A DNA stretch of 64,000 bases from Amphiscolops sp. MND2022 (Eukaryota), in assembly GCA_964187785.1 (NCBI GenBank), contig OZ076409.1:40240001-40304000 (forward strand). The letters are read 5' to 3'. Position numbers and translations under genes: made by a program. Position 1 is the stretch's first letter. Each line of letters starts with the position of its first letter. The notes beneath the pieces were generated by a model, which saw only the letters and a program-made list of their open reading frames with translations, did not search any database and was not told where the DNA came from. Positions 2,541 through 63,591 of the stretch are shown piece by piece.

Positions 2541-3963
2541 GATTCAATGACAGAGTTGGCTGTCGTTGGTTGGACGGGAACGTCCCTTTTTAATTCCGGG
2601 ATATTGTGACGCTTAGGTCGTGGATCGTTGGCAGAGTTAGCTCCGTTCCAACAATCTTCCGTTTTGTGAGGTTTGCCGCATGTGTCGCATTTAAGCGACT
2701 TGCCTGCACTAGAGTTGGTTTGACCATTGTTCTTCCTGATCTGCATCCATTTATCTCTCTTCATTTTCCTACATTCCGCTTTGTAGTGTCCAAATTTGTT
2801 GCAGTAGAAGCAATATCCTTTTTTGACATTTTGCGTCGTGCTGTCGACTTGTTTGGGTTCAGTTTTTGTTGGGGCCGGTTCTACTTTATTTAGTGGTACC
2901 AGTGTTACTTCATCTGGCGCCCCAAGGCCGTTAAGCCTCATTTTTCTAAGTGTAACACAATGTCATTATATGGCTTGTCTTCGAGATACGCCCTGTTTAG
3001 TATCTTTTTTACATGATCTGGCTTTTTTGCGTATATTGCCTTGTCAATGAATTGTTGGGCTTCAGATCCGAAGGCTTCTTTGGCCGTTTTTTGAAGTATG
3101 TCTAGAAATTCATGGAGTTTCTGGTTCGAGGGGTCAAATCTGAGCGCATCCCATTCGCATCTTGCTTTAGCCGTAGACAGGTAGTCCCCGAAACGTCGTT
3201 TGAATATCGTCATTATTTCGTCAAGGGAATCTTTTTTCGCGTCTTCTATATTGCAAAACGCCTGGAGGGCGTCTCCTTTGAGTAGCGAGTGGAAATAGTT
3301 AATTTTCTGTATTTCCGTGAGATGGGGATACATTTTTATGTTGTTGCGGAAAAGATCTTCGAATAATTCAAATTTTTCCGATTTCCCGTCGAACGTTGGG
3401 AGAGATGCCGTTAGTGCCTTTGGCATGGGCAGCGTTGTGCTGTCACCTTTTTCCGATGTAAACAGGGTCCTTGCCACAACTGGACGTTCTTTTGACGTTG
3501 GCTGACTTTGGGACCGGGCCTTCGTTCTTTTTGGCTGGTTAGTGGAGTCGGTTAAAACTCCTGTCACCATGTTACGACATGCTATCGAGTCGTTTTGAGT
3601 TGAACTTATCCTCACTGACTTTGTAGGGGTATAAAAGTTTCTAGTCTCCTCTTCTACTTCTTCCTCAGTATTTTCCCTGATACTTCCCCTTGTTTCAGGT
3701 TTTAGTAGTTTCAACATCTCTCTCTGGGATTCGGCAAGAAGAGTCTTAATTTCCGATGTTATCTCATCTTTCAAGGATGCCCTTAAACTCTCCAAGAAAC
3801 TATTTTCAATTCGAGGAGATTTTGGTTTGGAAGGACCCGACACGTCTACGTCCTGGTTTGAAGAACACGGATTTTCTACCACTATCGGTGAAATAAAACC
3901 TTCACTTACGTCCTTGTCGCCTTGTTGCTCATTCCTTCTTTTCTGGCTTCTAGTTGTAGACAT
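2531..3963 (-). pseudogene. gag: E1 gag (one frameshift near 2940); two zinc knuckles
   Basis: ORFs 3963-2938 and 2941-2531. PTFDGKSEKFELFEDLF capsid-like motif shared with E2/E3. CFYCNKFGHYKAEC (CX2CX4HX4C) and CDTCGKPHKTEDC. Confidence 0.9.
3558..3569 (-). promoter_or_regulatory. Primer binding site of E1 (TGGTGACAGGAG), probably tRNA-Leu
   Basis: Directly after LTR end and identical in E2 and E3. One mismatch from the complement of the typical eukaryotic tRNA-Leu 3' end (TGGTGTCAGGAGT). Confidence 0.8.
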
Positions 3964-6058
3964 TTTGAAGAAAAGCTTTATCTTGAAGAATTGATTTTTC
4001 CAAAGATAATTTTCAACAAAGTTAGCTGAGATTAGAGTTTAGCGAAATTGAGAATTCAACTGAATTAAACAATTGCAAAAGACTGAGTCCCTGAGTCAAT
4101 GAAAATCATCCTATATATACCCTCCTAGCATCATTTGATCACGATTAAAATCCTAATTTTCCTCGAACAATTAGTCATTTCCTGTATTTTCGATGAAAAA
4201 ATCATTTTGTTCCCAATTTTACGTCGATAACTCGTCAATTTTTGAGACACGACAATTTCAATCTAGCATTAGTCATCAACCACGATCATATCATTTCAGC
4301 TCGGCGTCCTTTGCTTTCCTCCCAAGCAGGAAGTAGATATTACTTCAGTCTGTCAAACCGGAAATGATTCCCTGTTTTACTGCTTTGGTTCGTAGGAAAA
4401 TGACGCGGAGGTGACGCTGACGTGAACAACTAATACCTGATTTTGAATTTTTACTTGAAGGAAATGCTATGACTAATGTTTTCAGCTTTGGAATTTCCAA
4501 TGATGCTAGGAAAAGTAAAGACAAAGCTATGGAATTAGCTTCAATTTTTGAGTTGAATTCCCAATTCAGATAAATAGTAATTAAACCAAATTAACGTAAC
4601 ACCAACGTTTACATTAGAAAACTAGAATGATTTGGCAACAGCTCTTGGCTACTACAAAATTGGCTGAAAAGGTGGACGGAGCTATGACGTATTAAAATCA
4701 AAGGTATTAACGAGTATGAATTTCATAATTGAATTCATTCGTACTCGAGTTTAAACTTTGACGTCTTAACGTCGTTGGACCGAACTAATAAAAGTGAAAC
4801 AGTCAGTTGCCAAAAGTGGTATGAAAATGATCACAATGAGATGTATAAAAACAACAACAAGCACAGTTATATTGGGGGAGAAACACGAACATGAATATTA
4901 CAAAAATATGACCTCATTATTAAAATATAATCTTTGCTGGTTCATAGCCCATAACTTTTCAGATACGTCAGGTTGACGTCAGGTTACACACAATCATATT
5001 TATGGTCTGCTTCAAACAGCATAAAATGTACATTAATAGCATTCCCCCTTTGGAATAAACTGTGACTTTAATTATGAAGAACATGGAAATCCTAATCGGG
5101 TCATTTTACAATGTGATTCCAAAAGATTAGTATTTTTATTGACGGGAACAGGACGTAAATTATCAAGTTTTATCCTTAACCTCGTAGAGTTCAAAAACAT
5201 CTTTAAACGTTTCTTTTCCGTCAAATCCGACATATTAATATTCATTCTACTGAATTGGATGGATTAAATCGACTATTTTGATGGATTTCGGACGTAACGT
5301 GGACGTACGTATTAAGATTGGCTATAGACCGCCGGCATTGGACGTAACGCGGACGTAAATTTGAAGTAAGAATTAGTCCGCGCCGAGAAGGCAATACCGT
5401 GACGTCACTATGGCGGAAAATTGGAATGATTTTAAGTAGTGTCACTAATATAGGCGGTAAATTGGAATGGTTGTCTAGTGAGCGCGGACGGAACGGTGAC
5501 GTCACATTATATACTTTCAAGTCTGCTTCTTACCGACGCCTAATATACATGTATCCTTTATTTTGTTTACCTAGCGCAGTGCCGACGTCCTAATCCGCAC
5601 TAATTGCTGTTCAAAGAGCAATTAAGCCGCCTTTCTTAGAAAAGGAGTATATATTTCAGTGTGTCATCTCAATGTACTTTCTATTTTAGATCCAGATAAT
5701 GTCCTTTTTCCAGTGGTGATTTTGGGTATGTTTTCGTTTAGATCGGTCTATGGTCTTTATTTCAAGACGTATACTTAATTAAGTTTTCAGGTGGCGAAAT
5801 GTTTCTATTTTGACGAGATGAAAACGTCCTGCCGGAAGTGTGTGAAATCATTTTGGCTCATTTTAGTTTCTGTTCTCATTTTCATTTAAACTTTTGCGCA
5901 AGCTAGACGTACTTTTAGTCACAGTTTATTCTAACATTAGTATGAAAGTTCAAGTCAGTAGCCAAAATACCTTTTCGAAAGTTTCGCCGTACAGCCGTGT
6001 CCTCGTCCGAACCCAATCCGTCTACATCCACAATCCAGTCCAGTAGCGGACTGTGACA
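3570..6058 (-). repeat. E1 5' LTR (~2.49 kb), contains TATA (4112-4119) and first 131 gag codons
   Basis: Inner end fixed by the PBS. Outer end inferred from the TGTCACAG motif shared with other families. Partner LTR is outside the window, so no TSD check is possible. Confidence 0.7.
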
Positions 6059-7279
6059 GTTAGTTATCTAAAAGTTGTATATGTTAGTTATAGTGACCAC
6101 TGACTCAGAGAAAAGAAACTAAAGAAGCAGAAAGAAGTTTCAAAAGTTTACTAATGAATACAATGCACTGAAAAAACGGCTTGAGCAAACCTAACTAAAA
6201 ATGTATGAAATGTTGCTTAAAAAAATCAGGAAAAATGTACCATGGGAAATACCTCAAATACAAACAAACCGGAGTTTTTGGCAGAAAAGCAAAAACTCTT
6301 GCTTTTACATTACAAATTGAGGTGAGTTTCAATAGAATTGTCAATTTAGGACATCTGTAACGTAGGCGCAGAATTGATTGGAAACAAACTACATGTTTCT
6401 GTCAGAAAAAATGTCCAGGTTGCTCTCTGGTTATAAGAAAAAACTGTAATTTCAAAAAAAAATTGACGTTACGAAGCTTTGTTCTATTGTTTTCGCAACA
6501 CCCATCCAATATTTTGAACAAGACCGTTTTTTATTATAATTTTTACTGGAAAATAGTGGCGAGTTTTCAAAATTAAGAAATAGTAACCAGATTTGCAATT
6601 TTGATTGACAAGTGTGCACTTTGGTTAAAGAATACACAGTACGTTTACCGATTATTTGTGATGGAGGACTACTAATTTTCAGACTGTCTTCTAATGGTCT
6701 ACTGCACGAAGAAAGTAGGGCTTTTTGACGAAGGAGCCTCAGATAATTTTGCCCTAAATTGGGGCTAACCAAAGTATTATTACGCTACTTCGCTCTCAAT
6801 GTTTATAAATTATATGTATAACCTCGCACTTTGAGAACTTGGGTTAAGAACAAAATTTTGTGATGTTTTATGGAAAGTGATATCCAAGATCTGAAACAGC
6901 CTAAAGAACAGAAATCAAGCATGTGAACTATTGAAATCCAATGATTCAAAAGAAAAACCTACTTTATCTACACCACCGAACTTTTTAAATAACATTAAAG
7001 AGTTGTTATGTATGTTGGTAAAAGGACCTTGGACAAATTGAGGAAGCCTTAAGCCATGGAACACTGGAAAGTATATGAAAAATGGAAGAAATTTTTGAGT
7101 TTTTCTTTGTATCTACTATAGTCAAATCTAATATAAAACAATAGTGAAGATAATGATACTGATTCCTTGCCAATTAACTGAGCCGGAACAGTCGATTCTT
7201 CAGAATCATTTTGAACTACGTGAATGTAAGTTCCAGAATTTTTCTACTCAATGTGGCATATCGGCGAGGTCTTGAAAGT

Positions 7280-11510: not shown

Positions 11511-12173
11511 TTACTTTGTTTTTTTATTGCAATTTTTTGTCAACTTTTGAAGACTTCGCGTATTGAAGAGTAAAAACGTTAAACATGAAAAGAGTTCATT
11601 GTCCATGTGATAATCCTCTTCATCGGATTCTTCATTCGAAAGTATTGTTGCATCTACGTCAGATTCATTTTGGAATAAAGGTTTTACGGGTTGTTTTAAG
11701 TCTTTCATTTTTGAAGCCCTGAGAGGATAATTGTTGCTTTCGAAAGCTGAATTTTCGTTGTTAGATGCGTGAATTTCGATAGACTGTACTTTTTCGGATC
11801 CCAAAAATTGCCTATTTTGCATTACGTTCAATTCAGATCTTGGGTTCGTTACTGTTGATGCAGTTTTGTTAGATTTAACCTCTTTCGAAATTGCTTCAAA
11901 TTTTTTAGCCATTTCTTCTCTTATCTTTTCAATCTTATCATCGTTCTTTTGCTCCATTATTTGAGTCCAAACTTGGATTTCGTTGCTGAACTGACTGGGC
12001 TCAGCCAACTGGTTTTCTGAGTTATTTTCACCTAAACTTTCATGAACATTGACGTTAAAATTAGTTAAAGTTGCATTTTCTGGGTCGAGTGTTTCTACTT
12101 GTGTTTCACTTAATCTTCTGTCAGGAGATGGTGTTCCCAATCTTCTGGACCTTTTGTTCCTCTTGTTTCTCAT
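11511..12173 (-). CDS. LTR-encoded Gag N-terminal segment of E4 (189 codons) running out into flanking DNA
   Basis: MRNKRNKRSRR basic start and a coiled-coil-like middle. Ends EEDYH|M exactly at the LTR terminus, in the same phase as E1/E2/E3. Confidence 0.7.
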   Translation of the reverse strand: MRNKRNKRSRRLGTPSPDRRLSETQVETLDPENATLTNFNVNVHESLGENNSENQLAEPSQFSNEIQVWTQIMEQKNDDKIEKIREEMAKKFEAISKEVKSNKTASTVTNPRSELNVMQNRQFLGSEKVQSIEIHASNNENSAFESNNYPLRASKMKDLKQPVKPLFQNESDVDATILSNEESDEEDYHMDNELFSCLTFLLFNTRSLQKLTKNCNKKTK

Positions 12174-15223: not shown

Positions 15224-17166
15224 TGTCGCAGGCTGCCGCCTGTGACGGTACTAAAATCACGACGACAGCAGAAGAGCAGGAAATAGCGACCGGTACCCTA
15301 CCAATCTATTAGAGAGGTAAACATTCAAAACTCAAACTTTTATGTTTATCTGTTAGGTTTATAAGTTGAATTTGTTAATGTTGCTAATTTCTCATTTGAT
15401 ATATACTTTTGCCAGTATTAGTCTGTTGAGGCCAACGATCAAAAGGCTCAGATGATCCGTTGATGTTTGTGAGATTCAGAAGTGCAATACAATAAGGTAA
15501 TTGAAGCAATTAGAAACACGGCTAGATAGCGTAAAGGAAACAAGTTCAAGTGAACGAAACTCCAATTCCGGGGACGTCACTTGAGCTCATCTCGCTAGCC
15601 AATCACATTCATTCATTCCTGCAGTGCTATTGCTGTATTTATTAGTTGGCCGGTTAAGGCCGCATGACGGAACTCCGCTTTCATTACTCGGTGCTTTAGT
15701 CAAACGGCCGGTTCCGGCCGCAAAGCAATAATGGAAGATGTATGTACTTTGTTAATGATAGTATAGTTGTGCTTTTATACTGGTTAAACGCTCATTTTAG
15801 TAATTTGGCGCTTTGTTCTAATATTTGGCCGAAGAAGGCCGTTTGCCTGATCATTATCTCTTGTTGCTAGAACCAACCAGACAGTGGCCGGTTAAGGCTT
15901 CTTTTCAAATAAATTATTCGGATGCTATATCTAACCAATTCGCGTACTCTAAATGTCATGTATGGTTGTGATTGCGATGTAAACACTCATGTAACTCCCT
16001 AAATTATTTAGTGCAATCAATATTAGACTATGTTGTTGCTACAAACGCCGGTCTGAAAGACCTATCTGGTTATGCCCACCAGTTAACATGTACAATCTGT
16101 GGCCATATCAGATAAAGTTTAACATGTGCAATAACATGTAATACTGTTGCTCACTAGCCAATTCTGTCTGCTAACGGGGCACGTGCCGACACGGGATTGT
16201 TAGCATTCCCCGAATATTAGCGGCTTGAGTAATTTAATTGATGATAATTGATGCACTGCGTGCCTTTCAAATGTTTACTACTGTTGTCGAAACAAGAATT
16301 TGAATGGCCGCGTGAATTTCCTGATCACATTTCAGCGGCACTTTGATGTTCATATAGCTGTGTAAATCAGGTGCTTCCGGAATGTAGTCATCACATTTTT
16401 TAAGTGTTTGTACTATGTATGTCACGCCCGAGGCAGTATATATAGGAGCTACTCCCTTGGGTGAACACAATTTTGTTCTGCTCCTTAAAATCAGTTTGTA
16501 AAATAACCTTCTGTTACAAACCTCCAAACAAGATACTATTTCCAGGTGTTAAATAATTTATTATTTGACCAGGTTTGTCTCAATGCCTACAACTAGAAAA
16601 CAAGAAAGCGAGAAAGTCCAGAGGACTTGAAATGTTGTCAGATATCAAGAATTTAGATATTATGTTAGGTGAGAATCACTTTAATGCAAGGGAGAGAGAA
16701 AGTAGTTTAAATAGCAATTTGCCCAGGAGATCTAGAAGCTTTGCGAGCAATGAATCCGAAAATGAAGATGGGGACATAGGTAGAAATCAGAGAAATGTTA
16801 ACTCTAGAACAAATGCCGAATGTGACCGAAATTCAGTTACAGGCAACTCTAGTGCTGAGATAAACAGGTTGTCAAGTGGAATAAATTCTCGTATTTCACG
16901 AAAAATGGACGAAATGATGAATTCTGTGAGTGTCCAGATACAAAGGGCCATAAGTGATGCGATAAGTACCCAGGTGCTTCCACAAATCCAAAATGTTATT
17001 ATGGCCAGATCAGGACACGGGACCAGAAAGGGATGAGACGTTCCGTCTGAGAGACCGGAACTAAATTCCGAAGTTCAGCGAAATCTAAACCCAAAGAACA
17101 ACTTGAGAAATGAACAGAATGAGAACCAGTTAAACAATGATTACCCTGATCTGAATGTTCATGACA
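15224..17166 (+). repeat. E2 5' LTR (1943 bp)
   Basis: Matches 29669-31536. TATATATA at 16437-16444; gag ATG at 16583. Confidence 0.95.
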
Positions 17167-18292
17167 TGGTGACAGGAGACAACGAATCTCCAAATCAGGT
17201 TCCTGAGTTTCTCACAGGACGTATCCCATCAAGAAGTCATCTCAGTCAGTCCTCTGAGGACATCAACCTTGACACGACGATCCCAGCGCATGAGAGAATC
17301 GGTACAGCTGCAGATCCTGATCCCATTACCAGATTGGTCGACGTCTTGACTACAATGCAGAATAGACCAACGGCTCAACAACTCACAATACGCCCAGTCA
17401 ACTCTAAACACTATGACTTTCGATGGCAAGAGTGAGAAATTTGAGCTGTTCGAAGATCTTTTCCACACTATGATCCAGATGCAGCCAGAAATGACCGAGC
17501 AGATGAAAATTAACCATTTTCATTCACTATTGAGGAAATATGCTCTCCAGACGTTCAGAAACATCAATTCGACAAATCGCCAAACCCTCGAAGACGTACT
17601 AGTCTTTTCCCGACGAAATACGTCAAACCTGAATCACAGGCAACCGCCAAACATAAATGGCACTGTCTGGTCTTTGATCCCAATACGATGAAACTGCCTG
17701 ATTTCCTTGAAGAATTAAATCAAGGCACAGGGAAGGCGTTCGGAGAACACGCACAGAAAATGATTGACAGACTCCTGTACGCAAAATTGCCACCAAAACT
17801 GAAAAGGTCAGTCAATATGGCCAGACTAGAAAACGGCTCATACGATGAAATAGTTGCTCATTTGGAGAGAGAATTTGAGCTTAACGCCCTCGAGGAGTCA
17901 GACGATCTACCTATGGCAGCAATGACTTCCTCATCTGCTAAGCCCAAAACTCCCCTGTCCACTGGGCAAATGTCGGACATCACTTGCAATTACTGCAAGG
18001 AAAAGGGCCACATGGTCAAGAACTGCGAAAAATTGAAAAAGAAAAAGAGAAAGATGCCCAACAAGGCAAATTGACTCAGAAGAAAACATACCCGGAGTGT
18101 GGCACTTGTGGCAAAAAGAACCACCCGGAGGAAAGATGTTGGCAAGGTGCCGGTGCGCATCTTAAACCCAAACGCACTAGGCCCGAGGACTCAAATGACA
18201 ATAAGCCTAATTCAAAGGCTCAGAAACCTCAGACCAAAACGACATCATCAAGCTCCCAATCCTCATCTTCCAATGATGAGTCAAAAAACTAA
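16583..18292 (+). pseudogene. gag: E2 gag, starting inside the 5' LTR; several frameshifts and stops
   Basis: MPTTRKQ start (a 2-bp deletion relative to the 3' LTR copy). MVTG at the PBS, TFDGKSEKFELFEDLF, CNYCKEKGHMVKNC and CGTCGKKNHPEERC; ends ESKN*. Confidence 0.9.
17167..17178 (+). promoter_or_regulatory. E2 primer binding site TGGTGACAGGAG
   Basis: Follows the 5' LTR only; the 3' LTR is followed by the TSD. Confidence 0.9.
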
Positions 18293-23719: not shown

Positions 23720-26700
23720 TCAGGACTTAGTGGAGGAATCTTTACTGGGACTTCCAGCAACAGAAGAAGTGGACGACCTCGAACCGCTCCTACCCCTCTT
23801 TCGCTTTTTGCTGCTAGGGAACCTCACAGCAGATTGGTCACCCACAGTACTACTTCCTTCCAGATCACCTTGCGCTGAGGCCCTTTTCGGAGCTGAATCG
23901 GCTTTACGATGGGTGGCTAAGAAGGACTTATATATTTTTGACCGACCAAAAATGTCTGTGTAAGTCCAAGGGTCGTACTCTGGGGAGAAGGCAGCGCGTC
24001 CAAAAGACGCAGCGAGGGCAGAAAATTTGGCAAGGCTGGAATCTTCACTGCTTCGAATGACGGAACCAGCAACATTGGCCATGTAACTCTGACAAGGTAA
24101 AACCAGGTCAGTGAATCGGTTTTGCCCTCCAGCAGCGGTGACATCTCCAAAGACGACAACGGTTGTACACAAACAGCTCAAATTAAAGAGGTGCAAAAGG
24201 TGAGAACGCTCGTGGAGAAACTCGAGCCCCATCAGGAACTCGATCAGATCGGCTGCCACGCTAGTGATGTCAAAGCTGGAACCGTAGGCAGTCCGGAGGT
24301 GGTCTAGTAGCTGAATGTATTGGTCTCGACACAGAGACCTGTTCGAATCATCGACCCAGGATCGAAGCGCAAAGGTATTGTAAAGCACGTCAAAGTGCCG
24401 CAAAGCCACATCTATCGGCCTCTTTAGCATAATGAAGGGATCAAAGGCTGCTAGTCCCTTCACGAGATTGGTGCTGAGCCCAGTCCTCTGGAGAATTCCA
24501 TTAATCAGGAACTGAATGTATTGCTGGCTGTCCTTGACGAAGTCAGCTTTCACTGTCTCAGCAGTAGCTAGGATGGCGGCCCGTTCAGTCTTCTGGCTGA
24601 AATGGAAACCCCCGGCCCTTGCCTTGCACGCAGTTGACACCTTGTTGGTCATCTTGAGCCGGATCAGGTACTCATCCCCAGGTAGGAAAGTGCCCTCGCT
24701 TGTCTGGAAACGGAGGAGGAGAAACCAGGCATTAGCTACAGGGGCAGTGTCTGGGGTTTAGATGCGAGAGCAGAGCAGGCTGAGGAAATGGCTGACCTCC
24801 CTGCATAGGTAGAAGGACGAATCACGACAAAACTGCAGGCTCACTGAGAAACTGGTCACGACTGAAAACAAAACTAATGTCCAGTTCAGGACAACTTACC
24901 CTCACCGGTTTTATAACAAACTATACTTACAATCACTGACAATTTTACTGAAGAACTCCAGCTTGACGATGCAGAATTCGTCCCATATCAGTGACCATTC
25001 AAAGCTTTGCACCTGGAACAAACCAACATCAATCCAATAATTGAAAATGGACCTTAGATCAGCCAAGTGAAGAAGGACGACTTGAATTCCTATGGGTTAA
25101 AGTGGAAAATGAGGAAAATCTAATCCTCCCTCTAGATCCTGAACCTTCTTGCAGAGGTGCATGGGTAGTGAGGTACCAAACCACAGACTTCCATTCGACG
25201 ATGAGTTCCCGACAGAGGATGGGTAGAGTTGTCACATCGAGTTTACAACTGGTTATAGCCTGGAAATAGCAAACGGATCCAATTATACACGTTGGACAAA
25301 TGAAACATTCCCTACCTAGGCCCTATCCCTCCAGTGGAAATTCTGTGAAGAAACTACTTACTTTAGTGAGTTCTGGACTACGAATTACCCAGTCTTCCAT
25401 GAGGGATCCGCCCAAAGAGACCATCAGAGCTTGAAGGACGGAGAAGAAAGCGATCTTTCTGAAGACACTGTTGCTGGTCTTGCGCATGAGTCGTGACAGG
25501 GAGAAGTGCTCGAAACGTAAGCAACTCTGAACCCCCTGGTTGTAATACTCTGACTCGTCAATGGCTCTGGGTAGGTCTGGGTGACATCCGGAACAGGCAA
25601 CTATTCCGGGTTTGGTGGACACGGCAGAGAGGATCCGGGAAAGGGACCCCAGTTCCCCGGTCACGTCAGTAGTGGTTCGAGAGCTTCGGCAAATGAACAC
25701 TCTACAAAGCTCGGAGCCTTTCCAGAACTTGACAGACATATGCTTGTAGACTCCAACTGTCTCAAACTCAAGGGAAAAGCACTGTTGGGAGTTGACTTGC
25801 TCTGCTATGTCGTCAAGGCAGCAGATGAAGAAGTGCTGGAAGATTGCCTAGGGACAAAACCCTTTTTAAAACCTTAGCTGGAACCGGCAATAAAGAACTA
25901 AAACAAACTGTACTAACCGACAATCTCTCTTCCCCCCAATTAAAGTCATTGAAGGTGGCTTGGTGATTGGTGAACGACCCCACCCGGGACCACAGATTGC
26001 GCAAGACCATCATATCATTCCTTGAGTCTTAATGAAGTCTCCGACCAGACAGAGTTGGGTCCTGATGCGGGCTTCTGGAGTGACTAGGGCAGTTGTGAAC
26101 CCTTTGACGAAATCCTCGTAGAAAGGGAATCGTTTTCCTATGTCCACAAGTTCAACGTTCTTGAATTTGGGCAATTCCTTAGCCAGTTCAACTTGGTCAG
26201 AAGCTTCCCATTGCCGCCACGGACCCGGTGCTGCGTCTTCCCAGTAATTGGGCCGGTACTTCGCAAGTGTTCGTAGCGCCAGCGCTGGTCTCGTCGAAAA
26301 TGACGCTCTGTCCGGTGGTGTCAGAGTATCTCGTAGGGGCCTTTGGACTTGATGGAAAATTTTTTCTTACAGATATGACACCAAACCATATGAGGGTTAT
26401 GGAGCGGGTCAGCTGGTCCAGAAATGAAAGATCTCGTCCATCCGATTTTAGAGAAGAATTCCTTTCGCATGGGGACACCTCGTTTAGAAAGATTCTTGTT
26501 GCCTTTCTTCTTCCTGGACTTGGACGAGCTGGCAGTGGTTGCACACAGGGCTTGATCTCTGACCTCAAGCAGTGTGGCATCTTGACTACTGTACTCTGGC
26601 GCGTCAGTCTCTGTGTCTTCTTTGACGTCCTGGCTCGACGATTGAGGCACTGGGGCATCTTGGACATTAGTAGTCATCTTGGAAGATTGGGTTATTAAAT

Positions 26701-27911
26701 CCATTTCGGTGGCACTATCAGTCTCCCCATAATACGAGGAATCACCGGTTTCTCCAGAACTGGATACCTCCGTGTTTTCGCCCCTTAGCGTAGCTTCTCC
26801 TTCAGTGTCACTTCAACTGGAATCTTCTGCACTACCGGGACCTGGGGTTTGTGCGCGCCTGCCTGAGTAGAAGTGCCCAGTTCTGGATGGAGCAACAGTC
26901 GGTTTACCTCGGACTGCATCAATGACCATGCGTTCCATAGTCGAAAAGGACCTTCCGAGGGTCTCATCAGTGAGGACTCCAAGAAGGTGGAACACCTGCG
27001 GCTCAGTGAAGGTGACGGTGGTTTGTCCTACTGGAAATCGAGTAGAGGGAGGTTCGTCGAAATACTCCTTGAGGATCGCTCGACTTCTTCCGGAAAGGTG
27101 CGGAGGCTCTTTCTGGATTGTGCCTTGTCCGGGCGTCTGCCCACTGGTGCCGGGAACCAGAAGCTTAGGTTCGGTCTCGTCTCCCCATTCAGTTTCAGAG
27201 GCGTGAGAAAAGGGATGACAACCATCTAGGGCTACTGGAACGATCACGCTGGACTGATCAGTTGCACCTTCGTCTCCACTGGGGTCAGTCAGATATCGGA
27301 CCTTGAATTCTCCGCCAGGGAGAGGGGGAGCGTCGCCAACAGAGGATGCTACTTCAGTGTCCTGTTGTGCGGGTGAAATGCCACCCGTGTTGTTGCCTGG
27401 AAGGTCAACAGTCCACAAGTTCAGCCAATTGAGAATCCGACGTCTCTACCACTCGGAGGGCAGACTCTAGAGCAGACTGATCAATATTTGGGGTTTCTCC
27501 TTCATTGACTGAGAGTGGCGTGCTTGCTCTTCTGGTCCCTGCAGTAGGCGAGGCAGGAGGATCTCCTTGAGTACTTGGGACAATATCCTGAGCTGGCTCT
27601 ATTTGCCCTGCTCCTCCCTGTGGTTGGTCGGGCACTTGTGCTCCTTCTAGCTTGCGTACCATGTTTTCCGCGTATGCAGTTACATCTGGGTCACTATCAG
27701 CACTGTGTGTAGAGGTGACGTCATCTGCTCGACTGCGTGGCGTTTCTTGGGATGGAGTCGGGTATTGGACTTGCCTACCCTGCTCAGTTGGGGGATTGAC
27801 TGTTGGAACATTGATAGGAGGGTCGGCTGGTGTGCTGGCAACTTCGGTTGACTGATTCTCTAAACGAAAAGAGATAAAGTTTGACGGTATGCTTCCTCGA
27901 AAAGAATCCAT
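23720..27911 (-). pseudogene. E2 antisense multi-exon accessory gene: disordered N-terminus, C2H2/BED-like finger, hAT-transposase-like body
   Basis: VWCHICKKKFSIKSKGPYEIL(R)HHRTERH finger. GT-AG introns at 25848-25917, 25260-25361 and 24862-24930; removing them gives near-gapless alignment to the E3 antisense protein. True start uncertain. Confidence 0.8.
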
Positions 27912-28968
27912 ATTACCGCGTTAGAAATCTTCCGGAAGTGTTTCAGATTTGAACAAAATGTGTTGTCACGAACCTATTAGTGGAAACAGGAAGCGCTGTA
28001 TGAAAGAAGTCTAGCCTTGATCAAGCTAAACTAGTTCAATATGTGAAAACTGAACCAACTTGTAATTGAAGACATGTTTCTCCAGTACTGTTAACCCAAC
28101 TCGAAGAGTCTCGTACTAGCTGGCCGGAATCGTGGAGTTGTGCCAATCTCGTTAGAAGAAGAGGGGAACCAGGGATTCTCCGAAACGAGGAGTTGTTAAG
28201 CGCAAGAGAGATGGTGACGTAAATAGACTGGTGCCAATTGAAAGGATATGGATGGGAAGACAAAAAGAAAATAACCAGAATCGAATCGGAATTAAAAGTA
28301 GATAAGAGAATTGGAATGTTGGAGTTCGTGGCTGAAGAGATTACCAGACTAATACTATATAATTACTTACATATTTAAAATTGTGCATGGAGTCTGCCAG
28401 CGAAATGTACAGAAGATCTTCGTTGTTTACAGTTTACTTAGTTAGTGGCCGATTATGGCCGTTTGCCTTACTTTGATTTGCCATTTTGTTCCGTTGCCCT
28501 AGTTACCCTTAGTTAAAAAATTTGTCATTTTGAATCATTTTAGTTAATTTTTTCGCCATTCTATTTATTCATTTTTCATTCTATCAATGGGAGTGTCTGA
28601 TTGGCTGAAGCCATTTTGAGAAAGTTTTGCGACGCATGCCGTTAATTACCTTCGAGCTGACGTTAATTACCCACTTGAAACGGGTGAAGTTAATTTTTAC
28701 AACTCAAGCGTCGTTCACACCTCTCATAGTGATGGTATTGATGAGCGGTAAACACTGAATTATCAAAGGATGCCGACTAATTATGAAATTCCGTTCAGGA
28801 ATGTTTATGCCGGATTAGGACGATTTACCGAAGACTCAACCGCCAAAACGAATTGCCGGGGAAAAGCCCGACTTGGCCAAATTCTCGAGTTGGTGAATTC
28901 ATTCCACCTTGAAATCTTGATCAAGCCAGTCGACTTTCCTACTTAACGAAATTGCTAAAAAACTGATA

Positions 28969-29757
28969 ATGCAAAGATACAACTTGACTAAAAAGCTCTT
29001 CGACTTTGAAGAAGAAGAATCAGAAAGCTCAACTAACTCAGTGATCTACATATCTAGCAATAGTGAAAATGAAGCTTCAAGCTCCTGGGATTCAGACTGG
29101 TCCACAGATACGGAGGCCATAATAGACAGGATCGAGCGAGAGGTTAAGGCAGTCACAACCCCTATTGCGGGGCGCGGGATGACGACGGAAGACTCAAACG
29201 ACGAAATGGTAGCGGGGCCCAGCAATGCTCAGCCTGTTCCGCCCTCTACCCCCATGCTGGGATTCGAATACTTCAACAGAGAGATGTGCCTAGCGCCGTC
29301 TAAGAAACAGAAGAAATCGAGAGTCGAGCTTTGTACTACAGTGCTACCTGTCTTGGAATCTCCACTGTCTCCTCCTGATCACGAGAGAAGACCCAGTATT
29401 GACACCCCTCTTGTACAGCCGGCCTCAGGGACCTTCTACGCTTCATACCATGTGCAGAATATCAAGCCATACCAAAATATCAGTGAGAGTCTACACACAG
29501 GCTGTATGGTATGTGGTAAATCAAGGGATCAGATAAAAGAAGAAAAGATCAACTGGTATATGGAGAGATCGACGCCCAAAAGTGAACTCGCCTACATCAC
29601 CGCATTACGACGAGAAGCCTACTCTATTGGTTTGAACGCAGGTAGTTTACTTTTCCTAACATCCGCAGTGTCGCAGGCTGCCGCCTGTGACGGTACTAAA
29701 ATCACGACGACATCAGAAGGGCAGGAACTAGCGACCGGTACCCTACCAATCTATTAG
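28969..29757 (+). CDS. E2 ORF-X, 262 aa, acidic N-terminus plus CxxC domain, ends 89 nt inside the 3' LTR
   Basis: Uninterrupted ORF with SSWDSDW and GCMVCGK. Homologous segment in E4. The C-terminal SQAAACDG is also encoded at the start of E5. Confidence 0.8.
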   Translation: MQRYNLTKKLFDFEEEESESSTNSVIYISSNSENEASSSWDSDWSTDTEAIIDRIEREVKAVTTPIAGRGMTTEDSNDEMVAGPSNAQPVPPSTPMLGFEYFNREMCLAPSKKQKKSRVELCTTVLPVLESPLSPPDHERRPSIDTPLVQPASGTFYASYHVQNIKPYQNISESLHTGCMVCGKSRDQIKEEKINWYMERSTPKSELAYITALRREAYSIGLNAGSLLFLTSAVSQAAACDGTKITTTSEGQELATGTLPIY

Positions 29758-34326: not shown

Positions 34327-35892
34327 TGTCGCAGGCGGCCGCGTGCGACGGAAACTGGTGCTCGATTTCATATAATCACTATAACACTCTCACTGGCACG
34401 ATCCCCCTAGACTGAAGAAAAAGGACTTGAAGTCTAAAAGAACAAAGATGGAACTGATGAACCTATCTTGTACCTAGCTGTAATATTTTGTAATTGTTGC
34501 TAAATTCGAAATTAATAATCGGACTTGTAGTTCAATTAGCGTTCCTTTAGTTTATGTCGATGAAATTGAATTAATATGTTGTTACTTTAATATACTCATA
34601 TACGTTAACGGTGATGCATTATTAGTAAATAGACACCAAGGCGTACAGATAAAGGAAACGTGTACAAAGGTTTCTTTGCATGTCGCTTTGGACAGCTAGT
34701 CCCGTTGAATTTAGACCAATCATATACAAGTATTCAATAACTTGCTGCGCTGTGAGTGCTTCTATTTGAAGGCCGTACTTGGCAGTCCACCTAATTAAAA
34801 TGGCCAACAACGGGTTTGAGACATCCATTTCAAATTGAAAGTGCTATATTGCTGAAATGAACGCTTAAACAAGGCCCGTATGGCTCGTTGGAAGTTGCAG
34901 TTTATAGTAGTAAATACATGAATTTGTTGCCTGAAGTACATGAAAAGGGAGAAATTGTCCTTCCCCCTTCTTTCATAAATATTCATGCAGGATACATGTA
35001 TTCAAAATGCATTCCCCTACAATGTTTGATGTCATGTCGGCGAGGACCTCAAGGCCATACAAACATTTTGCTTTGTCATATAATCTATATTTAAATATAA
35101 CGTCATGATGCTGTTTATAGAAACGTATTCAGATTACTGTTACTTTTTTTAGACCTTTTTTCTAAAAATAGCTAATGACTTACTGGTTAATGCAAGTCAT
35201 GGAAATTTAACTATAAATACCCAGGACACCTAGTCCCGAGGAGAAGAGAATATACCGGTGCACTGGATTACGGTTAATAACACAAATTACAATTTGGAAG
35301 CTGAAGATAATTATTTCTCTTCTCTTGTGAACAACCTCTTAGAGAACCTTCCACTAGAAGACAAAAAGCAAAAACTAGAAAGTCAAGGGAGATGGACATG
35401 ATGTCCGACTTTGAAAATATGGACGTTATGATAGGGAATGGAGAGTCTAACACTATTGAAAGGGAATTAGCAAGCGCAATTGAGGAATCATTAATACTTG
35501 TGGACGTAGAGTCTAATATGTTTCCAAGAAATGAATTCAGAGAGACTAGTGATGAAAATAATGTTCCTGGGCAAAATGAGCCCAGAGACTAAATGGAAAT
35601 TTTCTCAAATGAGTTTAACCTAAGGCTATCTCAAGAAATGGATTCCATGATGACCATGATGCATTCGCAATTTAACAGAGCCATAAGCTCATCCGTTTCC
35701 GATAGAGTTATCTCCGAAATAAAAAATATCATGGGTTCGATGTTTTCGTCAGGAATTAGGGACACTGAGGCCAGTTCGTCTCCAAATAGCCAGGAGAATA
35801 GGGAAAACAATCCTGGATTGAAAACTAAAATTACGAGAAAGGACTCTCTTCCGTCGTTGATCTGAGAGACACGGAGGTCTTGGGTCCTTAAA
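34327..35892 (+). mobile_element. E5: solo LTR (1566 bp) related to E2
   Basis: Starts TGTCGCAGGCGGCCGCGTGCGACGG (SQAAACDG). TSD ATGAC at 34322-34326 and 35893-35897. TATAAATA at 35212. Decayed gag N-terminus PSTRRQKAKTRKSREMDMMSDFENMDVMIG (35344-35865). Terminal ACA appears mutated to AAA. Confidence 0.88.
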
Positions 35893-44185: not shown

Positions 44186-46092
44186 TGTCACAGCCCCGCC
44201 TGAGCTGCGAGCACTGCAACAAACACAACCCAGTCTTCGAAGAATAAATTGGGAAAAGAACAAAGAAGAGGAAATAGACAGCTGACAAACAATCAGAAAC
44301 AAAGGAGTTAAACAATATAAACTTGAAGTTAAATAAATAAATATTTGCATATTAGTATTATTATCACAATAATGTACACTTATATAAATACGTACTTACG
44401 GAATAACGGAGCTATTCGTGCAGTTAATAATAATACAATACTATGTAATAATAATAATCGAATTGCACCGCTCAGTGCACGAACTGAGAAATTAAAGGCG
44501 GAACTGAGGCCTGGCAGCCGGCCTCAAATACTCGCACTAAAGCGGCGGCCTGGCAGGCAGCCTGAGAATTGTAAACTCAGCAAACTGATATGCAAGTGCG
44601 CGCTATAGTGAATACATGTAAATGAACTAATGTCTAGTGCAGTGATTTATTAACAATACGAGTGCAAATATACCAACAATTGAGATTTCTGTGCTAACTT
44701 AAAAGAACATCACGTACCGCGGCCTGAGATGCGGCCTGAGAATTACATACGATAAATCAATCACGAAAGTGAAAGATGATGATGCTACCGTGTAACTTTG
44801 TCTCGAAACGAATCTAGAGATTTTTATCTATGATCTTAAACTATTTTGTCGTTTAAAATATCGCATATAACGTTCTTTTACATGTAAATATTGATTGATC
44901 TATAAACAGGCCTGAACCGCAGCCTGGACCAAAGATTTAGTACCGAATATCAAACCAAGTGTTAATAACATGTATATCCTGTTCCCTGAATCCGTTGTCG
45001 TTTAATTGCATTAAATACCTTTCTGAACAATGTATCTGATGCTGTTTATAATTAATAGTTGCTTTACTCATTGAACAAGTTTGTCCGTCCCAGACTATGG
45101 CCTGGGACCAGGCTTCGTGATCTTAACCAAAAATCAGAGCCGTAAATACTGTAGAAGCAATTCTACTCTTTCATTTAAAACCTAATGTGTGATTTGTGTT
45201 AAATTTCATTCAAATTGTTGCTGATTTATTTAATTTAGGGAAATATTTGTAAAGGAAAATTGGTTGTCATCATTTTTTTCCAAATTTGTGCAGTTAATCA
45301 ATCTTATTCAATGACTCATTGCGCGTGTCTTTGATAATTTTTTCAGTTCGGCGTCCTGAAGAGGCGGGAAGATGGAGGCGAAGGGAAGCGGAGTCGCAAC
45401 TCAGGCCGGAAGTGGATGCGTGCTTTCTTCGGAAAGCATGAACAAGCCGAAAGCCTGAGTTCGACAAAGCGGAACTGAACTTCCTGTTTCCCTGCCTCGG
45501 ACGGACGCCGGACTGAACAAAATGTGAAGTATGTTCGTGTCTTTTCCCCGCTTTCCGGGATGGAAAGTATAAATACAATGGGAGCTAAAAGCCATTTTAG
45601 TTGAATTTTGTTATTTTTGCGAAACAATTATTTCCGTTTAACGATAATTAAAAATCTTGAAACATCACGCTTTGTCACTTGAGAACTTGCTCTAATTTCC
45701 TTAAAAAGAAAATTGAGAATCATCAAGCCTGAGTAAGATGCCAGAACGTAGCTCCAGAAGAAAAGCCAGAAGGGATTCCCCTGTGAACTCCTTAGACGAA
45801 CCTGAATCTTCTAGCATGAGGACTGAAAACGCTCCTAGTCTATCTGATAAAGATTTTACGGAATTATCTGAAAAGATAGAAAAGTCTGTAAGTAAAAGAA
45901 TCAAAGACGCAGAGGTCGGACAGCGCGAGATTCTGAAGATGATAGAGAACCTGACCTCTAAAATTGATACACTGGCAGAAAGACCGCCTAACAACATGCG
46001 TCATGACCCCGACGACGAGGGCGCGGGAAACACGGATTACTGATTTAGAACAGTTGAACCAAGTGATTTACTCCCGAATCACGGTCAACACA
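44186..46092 (+). repeat. E3 LTR1 (1907 bp)
   Basis: TGTCACAG..CAACACA; matches 61200-63107. TATAAATA at 45568-45575; gag ATG at 45738. Confidence 0.95.
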
Positions 46093-47366
46093 TGGTGACA
46101 GGAGTTACTACAACCCAGGACATACCCACCCGATCATCAAGTCTACCCCCGCCCAACATGAGATATCCAGACGATATCGTGGACAAATTGCTCGAATCCC
46201 TGAAGAATGCCACACAACAGAGCGCGGGACTGCCCAGACTCCCGAAGGCACTCTCAACAACCATGCCCACATTTGATGGCCGCAATGACAAACTCGAGCA
46301 CTTCGAGGACCTGTTTATGACGAGCCTCAAAGTATATCCAAATATCTCATAGGAAGAGCCAATTCACTACTTCTACTCCCTCCTGAGAGGCGATGCCCTA
46401 CAGACGTATCGCAATATGACAGACGCAAACCGCGCCAGTTTAGACGACATCATTACCACATTCCGAAGACGATACGTTCGCCCACAATCTATAGCCACCG
46501 CAAGATGTAAGTGGGAACAGCTTTACTTCGACCCGCCGGACGTATCGCAATATGACAGACGCAAACCGCGCCAGTTTAGACGACATCATTACCACATTCC
46601 GAAGACGATACGTTCGCCCACAATCTATAGCCACCGCAAGATGTAAGTGGGAACAGCTTTACTTCGACCCGTCGGCGACTCGACAAACCTTCCAAGACTT
46701 CCTGGAGCAATACCAGAAATTGGCACAGGAGGCATATGGCGACGACGCCCCAAAGTTCATAGAAACCTCATTCTATGCAAAAATGCCAGCGCACTTAAAA
46801 CGAGTCCTTGACCAGGCAAGACTAGAAACAGAGTCGTACGACCTGATGGTCCAACACCTGGAGCGTGAAATGGAGTTGAACGGACTCCTGGCCCCAAGCG
46901 AAACCAACATAACAGGAGTACACCAATCGATGTACAAGATGCCCCACAACAAACCGCCAATCCACCCAAACCAGCAGGCCCGTGTTTTGGATGTGGCAAC
47001 TCAGGCCATGTAATAAAGAACTGCCGGAAAACTGCTCGAGAAGCCCGCAACCGAGGCAATAGGGCACCGACTAAAATAACAAACCCATGTGATACCTGCG
47101 GCAAAAAGAGCCATACGACACAGGAATGTTATTCTGGCGCCAACTGGGCAAACAGACCCCAATGGTGGAAGACCCCTAAAGCAACTTCACCGAATAACAT
47201 CCCGCTGCCACAGAATACACAATGTCAGTACCCCCCAGACAACACACCAGTACATCAACAGCCATATAACAACCAAACAAATAGCCAAACGGGCTACCAA
47301 CCCATGCTCCCGCAGACCACTCAACCTCAAAACCAAACCCAGGAGCTCAGCCAATCAAAAAACTAA
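45738..47366 (+). pseudogene. gag: E3 gag, starting in the LTR; in-frame stops, 136-bp tandem duplication (46403-46674), frameshifts
   Basis: MPERSSRRKARR start; MVTG at the PBS; PTFDGRNDKLEHFEDLF; knuckles CFGCGNSGHVIKNC and CDTCGKKSHTTQEC; ends QSKN*. Confidence 0.9.
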
Positions 47367-56400: not shown

Positions 56401-57294
56401 GGGTAGCTCCGAGACAGCATCACTGACAGGGGCAGGAGTATCACCCGCCACCTCACACACAAATACATCACTGTCCTCGGAAGACTCAATTCCCGGCCCA
56501 GGCACTGCTCCAGCAACTATAATACAACCAAAGTATGAACAACAGGAAATGCAGAACAAGTGTCCCTACAAGCAATACACGAACCCATTTCATTGTACTT
56601 GACACCCCTAGAAAGAGAAAGAGAAAGAATACCTACTTTCAAGAGTCTGAGAAGCAGAAATCATGGGGGGCACATGGTCATCTCCCGAACTGTCATGAAC
56701 AGAGGGCGGCCTGGTAATCGAACCAGAAATGACATCCGCCAACCGAACCTGTTTCGCAGACTGCACACTGGTAGTTGACAACATTCGACTGGCCCTTGTC
56801 TTCTTCTTCCCTTGGGACCTCGTACTACGGATCGGGGCATAATCCTCATCAGATCCATCATCGGTAGCTACAGAAAGTAGATGAATAGAACGCGTTCATA
56901 AACCTAGAAAAGGCTGGCCACCTATTAATTTCTAGAAAAGATTACCTTTCTTCCGTGCCAACTGATCAATGTCATGCCGATCATCACTTGTGGCAGAATG
57001 GAAAGACCCAGTTGCAATAACACTCTCATGCTCTCCACTACTGTCATCACTGGAATTTGCTCTGTCACCAAAGCCTGGCACATGTCCCTCTGCTTGCTCA
57101 ACAGACCCACCAGCTTCCTCCTGAACGCCGCCTCCACTCGCCTCTTCATTTTCATCATCACCGCCACATCCACTAGTTTTTTCCTCTCCACGGAAAACCG
57201 ACTCAACCACAGACTCAACTTCTGCTCCACTCTCAACCAACTCTGCTTCTCGACTGCGGTGCAACAATGCACTATCTTCTTCAGTAGAACACAT
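53451..57294 (-). pseudogene. E3 antisense five-exon accessory gene, ~1125 codons, two premature stops; hAT-transposase-like with C2H2/BED-like finger
   Basis: Exons 57294-56946, 56867-56637, 56516-56313, 56194-56066 and 55915-53451. Four phase-1 GT-AG introns keep one frame. FNCSICKKDVSFLSRVARGIWRHFKCKGH finger. Stops at 54837-54839 and 53898-53900. Confidence 0.8.
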
Positions 57295-57514
57295 AATCAA
57301 TTGTCTGAAAATAACAAACCATGATAAAATAAAAAGAAGATGTGGCGTAAAGCAAGGAAATTTCTACTATCAAAAGTTATCTACTATATAAGGAGAGTTG
57401 TTCAGTCTGCCAGCTGAACAATTCATGGAGTTGACACAAATCGTGTGAACAAATTTTCCAAGCGAAGCAAATCAGTTGTAGTAAAAATTGACTGACGCTT
57501 AGTTTACTACTACA

Positions 57515-58099
57515 ATGAATCATCCAAATTCAAACAGCAAAATGGACGAAGACGTCTTCATTCTCGAACGAGATCAACACCAGCAGCCCGAACAAAGAGC
57601 CGGTACACCGTCACCAGATTATAACCTAATTACCACGCGGCAAATTAACATTACTTACGAAATCATTAAAACACAGGACTACCACGTAGTCCTAGTACAT
57701 GAAGAAACGCCGGACGATACTACGAGCACAGAAAGCGAGACGGGAGTCATCAGACGTTTCACGCAAGACAACCCGGTGATCCCCGAAGACACATTTGTGA
57801 GCCCGGTCAGGCAATTCGACCGTGAAAGTTACGATGATCCCGACAACAACGTTGATAGCCCAATAAGTTTCTACAGTAGCTCAGAAGGCTACTATTCGGG
57901 CAGCGATTGGTAGACAGACTCATCTTGGCGATCCTACAATTCCTTAACTGACGATCTCCCAACGCTATTTGAGACCCCGATTCGATCAATTTCCCAATTT
58001 CTCTTTCCCGAGGGAACTGGGTACAGAAGCCGAGGACTGTCAGAGCCCCGCCTGAGCTGCGAGCACTGCAACAAAAACAACCCAGTCTTCGAAGAATAA
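57515..58099 (+). pseudogene. E3 ORF-X copy 1 (premature TAG at 57911-57913)
   Basis: Near-identical to the intact copy at 60677-61261. Confidence 0.8.
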
Positions 58100-61261: not shown

Positions 61262-63107
61262 ATTGGGAAAAGAACAGAGAAGAGGAAAGAGACAGCTGAC
61301 AAACAATCAGAAACAAAGGAGTTAAACAATATAAATTTGAAGTTAAATAAATAAATATATGCTTATTAGTATTATTAACACAATAATGTACACTTACATA
61401 AATACGTACTTACGGAATAACGGAGCTATTCGTGCAGTTAATAATAATACAATACTATGTAATAATAATAATCGAATTGCACCGCTCAGTGAACGAACTG
61501 AGAAATTAAAGGCGGAACTGAGGCCTGGCAGCCGGCCTCCAATACTCGCACTAAAGCGGCGGCCTGGCAGGCAGCCTGAGAATTGTAAACTCAGCAAACT
61601 AATATGCAAGTGCGCGCTATAGTGAATACATGTAAATGAACTAATGTCTAGTGCAGTGATTTATTAACAATACGAGTGCAAATCTACCAACAATTGAGAT
61701 TTCTGTGCTAACTTAATAGAACATCACGTACCGCGGCCTGGGATGCGGCCTGAGAATTACATACGATAAATCAATCACGAAAGTGAAAGATGATGATGCT
61801 ACCGTGTAACTTTGTCTCGAAAGGAATCTAGAGATTATTATCTATGATCTTAAACTATATCGTCGTATAAAATATCGCATATAACGTTCTTTTACATGTA
61901 AATATTGATTAATCTATAAACAGGCCTGAACCGCAGCCTGGACCAAAGATTTAGTACCGAATATCAAACCAAGTGTTAATAACATGTATATCCTGTTCCC
62001 TGAATCCGTTGTCGTTATATTGCATTACATACCTTTCTGAACAATGTATCTGATGCTGTTTATAATTAATAATTGCTTTACTCATTGAACAAGTTTGTCC
62101 GTTCCAGACTATGGCCTGGGACCAGGCTTCGTGATCTTAACCAAAAATCAGAGCCGTAAAAACTGTAGAAGCAATTCTACTCTTTCATTTAAAACCTAAT
62201 GTGTGATTTGTGTTAAATTTCATTCAAATTGTTGCTGATTTATTTAATTTAGGGAAATATTTGTAAAGAAAAATTGGTTGTCATCATTTTTTCCCAAATT
62301 TGTGCAGTTAATCAATCTTATTCAATGACTCATTGCGCGTGTCTTTGATAATTTTTTCAGTTCGGCGTCCTGAATAGGCGGGAAGTTGGAGGCGAAGGGA
62401 AGCGGAGTCGCAACTCAGGCCGGAAGTGGACGCGTGCTTTCTTCGGAAAGCATGAACAAGCTGAAAGCCTGAGTTCGACAAAGCGGAACTGAACTTCCTG
62501 TTTCCGTGCCTCGGACGGACGCCGGACTGAACAAAATGTGAAGTATGTTCGTGTCTTTTCCCCCGCCTTCCGGGATGGAAAGTATAAATACAATGGGAGC
62601 TAAAAGCCATTTTAGTTGAATTTTGTTATTTTTGCGAAACAATTATTTCCGTTTAACGATAATTAAAAATCTTGGAACATCACGCTTTGTCACTTGAGAA
62701 CTTGCTCTAATTTCCTTGAAAAGAAAATCGAGAATCATCAAGCCTGAGTAAGATGCCAGAACGTAGCTCCAAAAGAAAAGCCAGAAGGGATTCCCCTGTG
62801 AACTCCTTAGACGAACCTGAATCTTCTAGCATGAGGACTGAAAACGTTCCTAGTCTATCTGATAAAGATTTTACGGAATTATCTGAAAAGATAGAAAAGT
62901 CTGTAAGTAAAAGAATCAAAGACGCAGAGGTCGGACAGCGCGAGATTCTGAAGATGATAGAGAACCTGACCTCTAAAATTGATACACTGGCAGAAAGACC
63001 GCCTAACAACATGCGTCATGACCCCGGCGACGAGGGCGCGGGAAACACGGATTACTGATTTAGAACAGTTGAACCAAGTGATTTACTCCCGAATCACGGT
63101 CAACACA
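61200..63107 (+). repeat. E3 LTR3 (1908 bp) with gag N-terminus 62753-63058
   Basis: Direct repeat of 44186-46092. Confidence 0.95.
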
Positions 63108-63591
63108 TGGTGACAGGAGTTACCACAACCCAGGACATACCCACCCGATCATCAAGTCTACCCCCGCCCAACATGAGATATCCAGACGATTATAAGGTAA
63201 CCAGGAGCTTTCATTTTTCCAATCTATCGTTGTCAATGTATGACCTTATGATCTGCTGTTTGATAAAGAGTTTTTCGGCTATAATAAAACAGGTTTTAGT
63301 GTCATTCAAATGCATCAACTACCATGATTCTTGTAAACCTATTGAATTCGATTTAAGATTTCACTGCGCTGTCAATTCCCTGGAGCTTATTGTGATTTAC
63401 TCTTTCTGAGACCCGAAGGAGGCCACGTTCTTGTCGTGGGTCTTGTCAAGTGCGAAACTATGTATCTCACGAGCTGAGTGCCTCCCTAAAAATACAGCAT
63501 AAGGACCTCGGCAACAAATTTTTGTGCATCTTGTGCGCAAGTGGTTGCCTTGTCCGACATCTATCTGATAAGAATTGAACTTTTGGGTTTT

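Follow-up and report, generated by a model that had tools for sequence, protein, structure and literature searches.

Gag of a Ty3/gypsy-type retrotransposon lineage probably starts inside the LTR, in a coding segment that is likely exchanged between copies

We report that in the E1 lineage of LTR retrotransposons Gag very probably has its start codon 100 to 220 codons before the end of the 5′ LTR, with the frame continuing across the att end and the primer site for tRNA-Leu, and that the LTR-coded part, which is under purifying selection, is exchanged between copies, likely via transfer of minus-strand strong-stop DNA. Element E1 lies on the minus strand of the window, i.e., the whole 64,000-nucleotide stretch of DNA that was analyzed, and the following features were assigned to it.

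6064-6060, minus strand: CTAAC target-site duplication of E1, flanking both element ends
3570..6059, minus strand: E1 5′ LTR of 2,490 bp, TGTCAC...GTAACA, matching its own 3′ LTR (L031/L032) at 99.4–99.8%, with the same 5-bp flank on both sides
4111..4119, minus strand: putative TATA box (TATATATAG), 156 nt above the ATG, at a position common to many families
4080..4093, minus strand: putative U3/R border with the initiator-like TCAGTC at 4086-4081, placed by the parent switch between TATA+26 and TATA+39 in recombinant copies
3571..3963, minus strand: LTR-coded Gag N-terminus of 131 codons (frame, dN/dS, AlphaFold2), with a basic tail (residues 1–10), a predicted helix (52–87), and disordered linkers
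3703..3810, minus strand: predicted amphipathic helix, residues 52–87, with pLDDT of 74–92 in residue blocks 51–80 and a hydrophobic moment peak near 95 degrees
3557..3570, minus strand: att end and primer-binding site read as M-V-T-G, i.e., the terminal A (3570) and TGGTGACAGGAGT (3569-3557), complementary to the 3′ end of tRNA-Leu(CAG/CAA) plus CCA
2941..3420, minus strand: capsid-like helical domains, Gag residues 182–340 (AlphaFold2, Pfam, Foldseek)

The E1 Gag frame is open for 341 codons from the ATG at 3963, and the first 131 of these precede N|M-V-T-G. The window contains the 5′ LTR only, the 3′ LTR having been found in neighboring genome stretches. Because the similarity between the two LTRs ends exactly at the A of ...GTAACA and CTAAC is present on both sides, the LTR measures 2,490 bp and has as its last base the A of the junction methionine codon, which starts at 3570. 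Thus, the frame and the LTR end together confirm the preliminary description of this DNA in that Gag of E1 opens within the LTR and passes in frame through N-M-V-T-G. The start had been placed "deep" inside the LTR; inside holds but deep does not, as ATG 3963 is 393 nt before the last LTR base, i.e., within the final 16% of the LTR. Among 30 LTR matches of the family, the end motif was found in 27, all of which keep the terminal A; in 10 of these it is followed by TGGTGACAGGAG and in 17 by unrelated flanking DNA.

For the primer site TGGTGACAGGAGT, complementarity was found to two tRNA 3′ ends, that of tRNA-Leu(CAG) plus CCA and that of an intron-bearing tRNA with the anticodon CAA (read from the sequence) that is located in a tandem array. 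This array starts at 35.59 Mb on G000:C8 (L099) and consists of 101-nt intron-bearing tRNA-Leu(CAA)-like genes with a period of mostly 296 bp; their 3′ ends match the primer site, and they were missed by ARAGORN. The 3′-end motif of these genes has 980 matches genome-wide, 966 of them on one strand. M-V-T-G is not usable as evidence of protein constraint, since the search pattern selected for it and its bases are set by the att end and the primer site. Accordingly, the coding component of the dual constraint that had been proposed for the terminal CA and the primer site gains no support from the invariance of M-V-T-G, for which the att end and the primer site alone account.

By its domain content and order, the E1 lineage is of the Ty3/gypsy type. 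Direct LTRs, TG...CA ends, target-site duplications (CTAAC in E1, TTTGC in E2), and an adjacent tRNA-Leu primer site are all present. Pfam profiles RVT_1 and RT_RNaseH were matched in E2, and rve was matched in E3 downstream of a stretch homologous to the E2 reverse transcriptase (RT); the pol order of RT, RNase H, and integrase is therefore pieced together from E2 and E3, with the E1 RT aligning to both. The best PDB matches of the RT are 8r0s, 7ksf/7kse, and Ty3 4ol8. On the Gag side, the E1 protein matches DUF1759, and across 24 Gags the matches were DUF1759 (17/24), Retrotrans_gag (10/24), zf-CCHC (8/24), and Ty3_capsid (3/24). Bel/Pao elements combine a DUF1759 Gag with a Pao-type RNase H (Peptidase_A17) and DUF1758. 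We rejected this assignment: DUF1759 is frequent here, yet the scanned pol pieces match RT_RNaseH/RT_RNaseH_2 and not Peptidase_A17 or DUF1758. Ty1/copia was rejected as well, as it requires the integrase upstream of RT, while here the integrase follows RT and RNase H. No clear purine run was seen upstream of the 3′ LTR in E1 (L031), which is young, or in E2 (window about 29650-29668), and given this absence plus-strand priming in these two elements may be atypical. A purine-rich stretch is present before the inner E3 LTRs.

The layout is not peculiar to E1. A search of the 1.07-Gb genome for the junction motif CATGGTGACAGGA gave 7,839 occurrences vs. 3 for the reversed control, so that these junctions mark a major component of the host DNA. 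The frame was tested at the first 90 of these sites by position on contig C1, unselected for frames. The junction frame is stop-free over 100 upstream codons at 69/90 sites; the two other sense frames are stop-free at 0/90 and 0/90, with 6.9 and 11.5 stops per 100 codons, and the antisense frames at 0/90, 3/90, and 0/90. Upstream openness was observed at 60/67 sites where the 100 downstream codons are also open and at 9/23 where the downstream part is broken. A chance origin of the open LTR frame is excluded. Family-typical Gag starts, found for 57 loci, are localized 103 to 216 codons above the junction in 56 of them. Identity of the families to E1 Gag is about 23–37% at the far end, and their N-termini are hardly alignable, but most of them show a basic N-terminal stretch and a helix-like block. 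Range searches outside this genome yielded 2,800 and 2,853 protein matches, which neither show nor exclude other hosts; the matches listed in one of these searches and the 10 clusters looked up are ENA entries. Among the 150 best library matches, M-V-T stands at the very start in 12 and internally in 28.

The LTR-coded part of Gag is under purifying selection. Of 91 loci, 49 with an ATG-initiated LTR part of 100 codons or more and an open interior of at least 200 codons were compared, hence the estimates refer to open frames only; 114 pairs were at least 55% identical, and dN/dS was computed for pairs with dS of 0.1–1.2. The median dN/dS is 0.143 (maximum 0.40; 51 pairs) for the LTR-coded part and 0.053 (60 pairs) for the Gag interior. 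Across 17 disjoint pairs, the LTR-coded values range from 0.06 to 0.40 and are thus not neutral. In nucleotide-only alignments of these 17 pairs, mismatches at codon positions 1–3 number 290/248/755 in the LTR-coded part vs. 217/219/188 in the upstream non-coding control. The share of indels with lengths divisible by three differs weakly (19/59 in the coding part vs. 26/143 upstream). Frame loss in young copies was also looked for: in a set of 30 E1-family members, comprising E1 and copies chosen by their interior, the LTR part stays open in 29. The full 478-codon Gag is present in 18 of the 30, while the frame of E1 itself stops early, at 341. The family Gag stop is directly 3′ of A AAA AAC (AAAAAAC TAG, window about 2536-2527, minus strand), which we take to be a slippery heptamer of the canonical type for −1 frameshifting; the open frame of pol is likewise −1. 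Identity across 41 relatives is 0.88 in the first ten residues, 0.66–0.70 in the helix, and 0.38–0.6 in the linkers.

The AlphaFold2 model of E1 Gag (mean pLDDT 62.5, pTM 0.31) predicts that the LTR-coded part comprises a basic tail and one amphipathic helix, followed by a disordered linker that holds the junction. Confidence is low at residues 4–49, 90–128, and 137–179, around the helix at 52–87 and before the helical domains at 182–340. As the junction falls within a predicted disordered linker, the protein would tolerate the fixed junction bases. The frame had been described as running into the capsid, and it does so in frame, but not directly: the fold starts near residue 182, about 50 residues past M-V-T-G. 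In a Foldseek search with the model, the top matches are all capsids, none at E ≤ 0.001; the fold resembles dArc1, PNMA2, and retroviral CA (E 0.02–0.1, weak). A sub-threshold match to DNTTIP1_dimer coincides with the predicted helix, and an ESM Atlas search with the 131-residue LTR-coded part returned only unnamed clusters under 0.9, giving no lead. The LTR-coded part probably serves self-association and nucleic-acid or nuclear targeting, the role assigned to the helix being a guess.

A TATA-like hexamer lies 125–175 nt upstream of the start in 32/71 matches in 57 loci, so that the TATA box previously reported about 125–180 nt above each start is indeed common, but it is absent in several families. 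The E1 subfamily has two short upstream ATGs beside the TATA box, at or above the putative transcription start. TCAGTC fits the initiator TCAKTY named in the available part of PMC3601003. Across families, the initiator motif is spread from TATA+28 to +66 in 32 loci without a sharp peak, and the positions of AATAAA/ATTAAA are not conserved across 57 loci. From the recombination breakpoints described below, transcription likely starts 117–130 nt above the ATG. As the breakpoints place the start there, R-U5 would span about 520 nt, of which three quarters are coding, and this supports the earlier suggestion that R/U5 is largely coding. A U3 stretch 700–800 nt before the LTR end (window about 4370-4270, minus strand) shows 6–10% divergence between subfamilies vs. 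15–30% around it and is a candidate enhancer.

Comparisons between copies revealed steps at the junction: in many pairs, dS of the LTR part far exceeds that of the interior, and in some pairs the reverse holds. Below, breakpoint positions are given relative to the terminal A of the LTR, with the TATA box at −548. Both breakpoints were predicted before mapping, and copies were then fetched by interior similarity alone. Two of 29 E1-family copies (L161, L181) show about 1% divergence from E1 in U3 and the interior but 17% in a block before the junction (74/425 and 71/409); the donor subfamily was found by a search with that block. In L161, informative sites are E1-like up to −522, donor-like from −509 or −497 (depending on the donor) to −12, and E1-like again from +14. 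The block edges in L161 and L181 thus correspond to TATA+26 to +39 and to the LTR end, within identity tracts of only 12–25 nt, and the foreign block is present in both LTRs of both elements (L250-L253). The 5′ switch recurs in L257. In the E2-type family, 6/28 copies combine the reference U3 and interior with a block that is 17–19% different and ends at −4 to −8. Their best changepoint is at −574 to −538, i.e., at the ATG rather than at TATA+30, while mismatches to the U3 parent start at −671 (TATA+36); the sole donor found is imperfect, and this edge is uncertain by about 100 nt.

A systematic triplet scan of 158 loci from six families returned 14 rows. On the 3′ side, 3/3 breakpoints are at −12/+14 or −11/+14; on the 5′ side, L161, L181, and L269 break near −524 to −497 (L269 at −524/−504), and L270/L271 do not fit, breaking at −697/−690. 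Distance congruence has minima at −500 (r 0.27) and 0 (0.54) for the E1 type (17/44 copies after thinning) and at −600 (0.50) and 0 (0.37) for the E2 type (24/36 copies); the MNPD family (15/36 copies) shows a weak dip at −650 and none at 0 (r 0.92). Copies had been selected for resemblance to the interior or the block, which favors steps near query edges, but the 5′ edge in L161 and L181 was found without selection on that region. L161, L181, and possibly L257 may represent one event, and the six E2-type mosaics probably do, so that independent swaps are few, perhaps three to five. A second shared recombinant block, 9–16% from E1, is located near the gag/pol border, about +1000 to +1900 from the junction, in nine copies (L165, L166, L171, L172, L177, L180, L183, L188, L189).

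These observations suggest the following course of events. The promoter would fire about 30–35 nt past the TATA box, the ribosome would scan about 120 nt of leader before reaching the ATG typical of the family, and translation of Gag would proceed through R-U5, the att end, and the primer site. Starting at the primer site and running to the RNA 5′ end, reverse transcription would copy the LTR-coded segment first, as strong-stop DNA. A jump of this DNA to the other packaged RNA would yield R-U5 and the Gag N-terminus of one parent with U3 and the interior of the other, in both LTRs, and the second transfer, at the primer site, would join the swapped segment to the interior of the second parent, leaving a breakpoint at the junction. 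Joining of R/U5 of one RNA to U3 of the other at the first transfer, and the second transfer at the primer site, are described in PMC6894440. Co-packaged subfamilies would thereby exchange N-terminal domains, since it is this segment that the first jump moves and the primer-site join never leaves the frame.

The coding layout could be real and the mosaics nevertheless be products of gene conversion among integrated copies or of ordinary template switching, combined with faster LTR evolution, in which case they would say nothing about the transcription start. Crossovers elsewhere speak for this, namely L278 near +200, blocks inside gag-pol, and six E1-family copies with shorter blocks starting at −364, −351, or −157; given L278 and the shorter blocks, ordinary template switching also acts in the lineage. 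The selection of copy sets on flanking similarity and the higher dN of the LTR-coded part compared with the interior point the same way. Against it, however, two elements carry the block in both of their LTRs, and the block edges are confined to tracts of 12–25 nt at the two positions expected from strong-stop transfer. Nor is the interior simply more conserved, since the donors are 15–21% from E1 just inside the primer site. We consider this explanation unlikely, though worth keeping in mind, and prefer strong-stop transfer.

Less credible still is a main Gag that starts at the junction ATG (M-V-T-G), with the upstream part forming a minor long isoform or a small protein made from 3′ or solo LTRs, e.g., a self-limiting factor similar to Ty1 p22. 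While the junction always supplies an in-frame ATG, this codon is forced by the att end and the primer site and is situated in a disordered linker, the capsid fold starting 50 residues further on; moreover, a scanning ribosome would meet the upstream ATG first, and in intact families the two parts are never divided by a stop. A separate LTR protein finds some support in the primer-less E1-type LTRs, as the frame is open in 18/18 scored and stops 2–39 codons into the flank (29/60 loci matched the motifs used). Finally, the open frame might be non-coding and owe its existence to base composition or to a recent expansion of nearly identical copies. Beyond the A-rich strand nothing was found in favor of this, and it is contradicted by the stop densities of the other sense frames, by dN/dS far below 1 at dS up to 1.2, and by persistence of the frame across families with barely alignable N-termini; its probability is negligible.

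Proteins encoded in LTRs are known from retroviruses, where MMTV sag, HIV nef, and foamy-virus bel are accessory genes located in U3. The E1 lineage resembles them in having protein coded in the LTR, but differs in that the coded part is the start of Gag and lies on the R-U5 side. A closer parallel is Ty1 of Saccharomyces cerevisiae (Ty1/copia), for which the available excerpts report a 53-nt 5′ UTR (PMC5454406) and a primer site at RNA nt 95–104 inside GAG (PMC4974528). On these excerpts, the GAG start is above the primer site and the latter is translated, as in the E1 lineage. About 14 LTR-side codons were computed from the Ty1 positions, consistent with the earlier remark that Ty1 GAG starts shortly before the LTR end, against 103–216 in the E1 lineage, a tenfold larger number. 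Unlike Ty1, the E1 lineage has a selected LTR part with a predicted helix, belongs to a different superfamily, has LTRs of 1.9–2.5 kb, and uses tRNA-Leu rather than initiator tRNA-Met as the primer. With Ty3/gypsy (Metaviridae-type) elements it shares the RVT_1, RT_RNaseH, rve order, the Gag profiles, and the TG...CA ends; in contrast, the primer site of Ty3 is outside the gag frame according to the excerpt of PMC4974528, and AATAAA, conserved in animal Metaviridae LTRs according to that of PMC3601003, is not conserved here. Our literature search found no long LTR-coded Gag N-terminus (100–200 codons) for gypsy-type elements, although repeat databases or supplements could hold one; the accessible portions of PMC1142308 and PMC5408684 contain nothing on the subject. 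Mosaic Ty1 elements with breakpoints near gag borders (PMC7055915) and fission-yeast elements with breakpoints near the U3-R junction (bioRxiv 10.1101/2022.12.06.519325) have been reported. Where first-transfer recombination is described in such sources, the exchanged piece is presented as regulatory DNA, whereas in the E1 lineage it carries 100–200 Gag codons. The comparison supports a layout that is new in size relative to Ty1, and a recombination consequence that rests on few events.

The working assumption of a non-coding LTR is broken by the E1 lineage. Annotation of Gag from behind the primer site would lose about a quarter to a third of the protein, and LTR-based trees in this lineage reflect protein selection. 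If strong-stop transfer is the route, a known replication step is tied to protein-domain exchange, amounting to built-in domain shuffling; it predicts a cap site at 4093-4080 and breakpoints at the primer site, and the U3/R border would be readable from recombinants without RNA. Thousands of 3′ and solo LTRs carry the promoter, the start codon, and the LTR-coded domain. A bolder reading, possible but on balance doubtful, is that the strong-stop segment has taken in a whole Gag domain, with the result that an N-terminal module is swapped between co-packaged subfamilies, at fixed in-frame joins, in every intermolecular first jump. Such swaps could speed escape from host control or change co-assembly, and the thousands of 3′ and solo LTRs could make family-limiting capsid-less fragments or host fusions.

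Besides E1, the window contains several further copies of the LTR-coded N-terminus.

16580..17178 (start approximate), plus strand: E2 5′ LTR-coded N-terminus and junction, phase kept, with one frame break and one stop
45738..46104, plus strand: E3 LTR-coded N-terminus and junction, 118 codons, one stop
62753..63119, plus strand: second E3-type LTR-coded N-terminus and junction, 118 codons, one stop, truncated soon after
11606..12173, minus strand: orphan LTR-type N-terminal frame, 189 codons open, with no primer site or capsid behind it

The preliminary description had the same phase holding in E2, E3, and a further element, E4. The phase is indeed kept in E2 and E3 but is broken there by stops or a frame break: the E2 5′ copy has a frame break near its start plus a stop, and the 3′ copy has two stops. 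The 189-codon copy at 12173-11607, probably identical to E4, is open, but lacks the primer site and capsid; a search for a target-site partner of this copy (11.6–12.2 kb) found none. Decayed orphan copies of LTR-coded N-termini from two other families were observed at 35290-35872 (plus strand) and 8640-8343 (minus strand), and one of them may be the decayed copy earlier named E5. Long antisense frames lie between pol and the 3′ LTR in E2 and E3 (23723-27920 and 53454-55964, minus strand), together with a sense frame at 28969-29757 and 60677-61261 on the plus strand; the four frames scanned in these intervals had no Pfam match. The end of E3 is a 3.16-kb tandem duplication (56110-59271 and 59270-62433) within window positions 56110-63190, and the last E3 LTR is followed by the primer site and about 65 nt of interior before the element breaks off.
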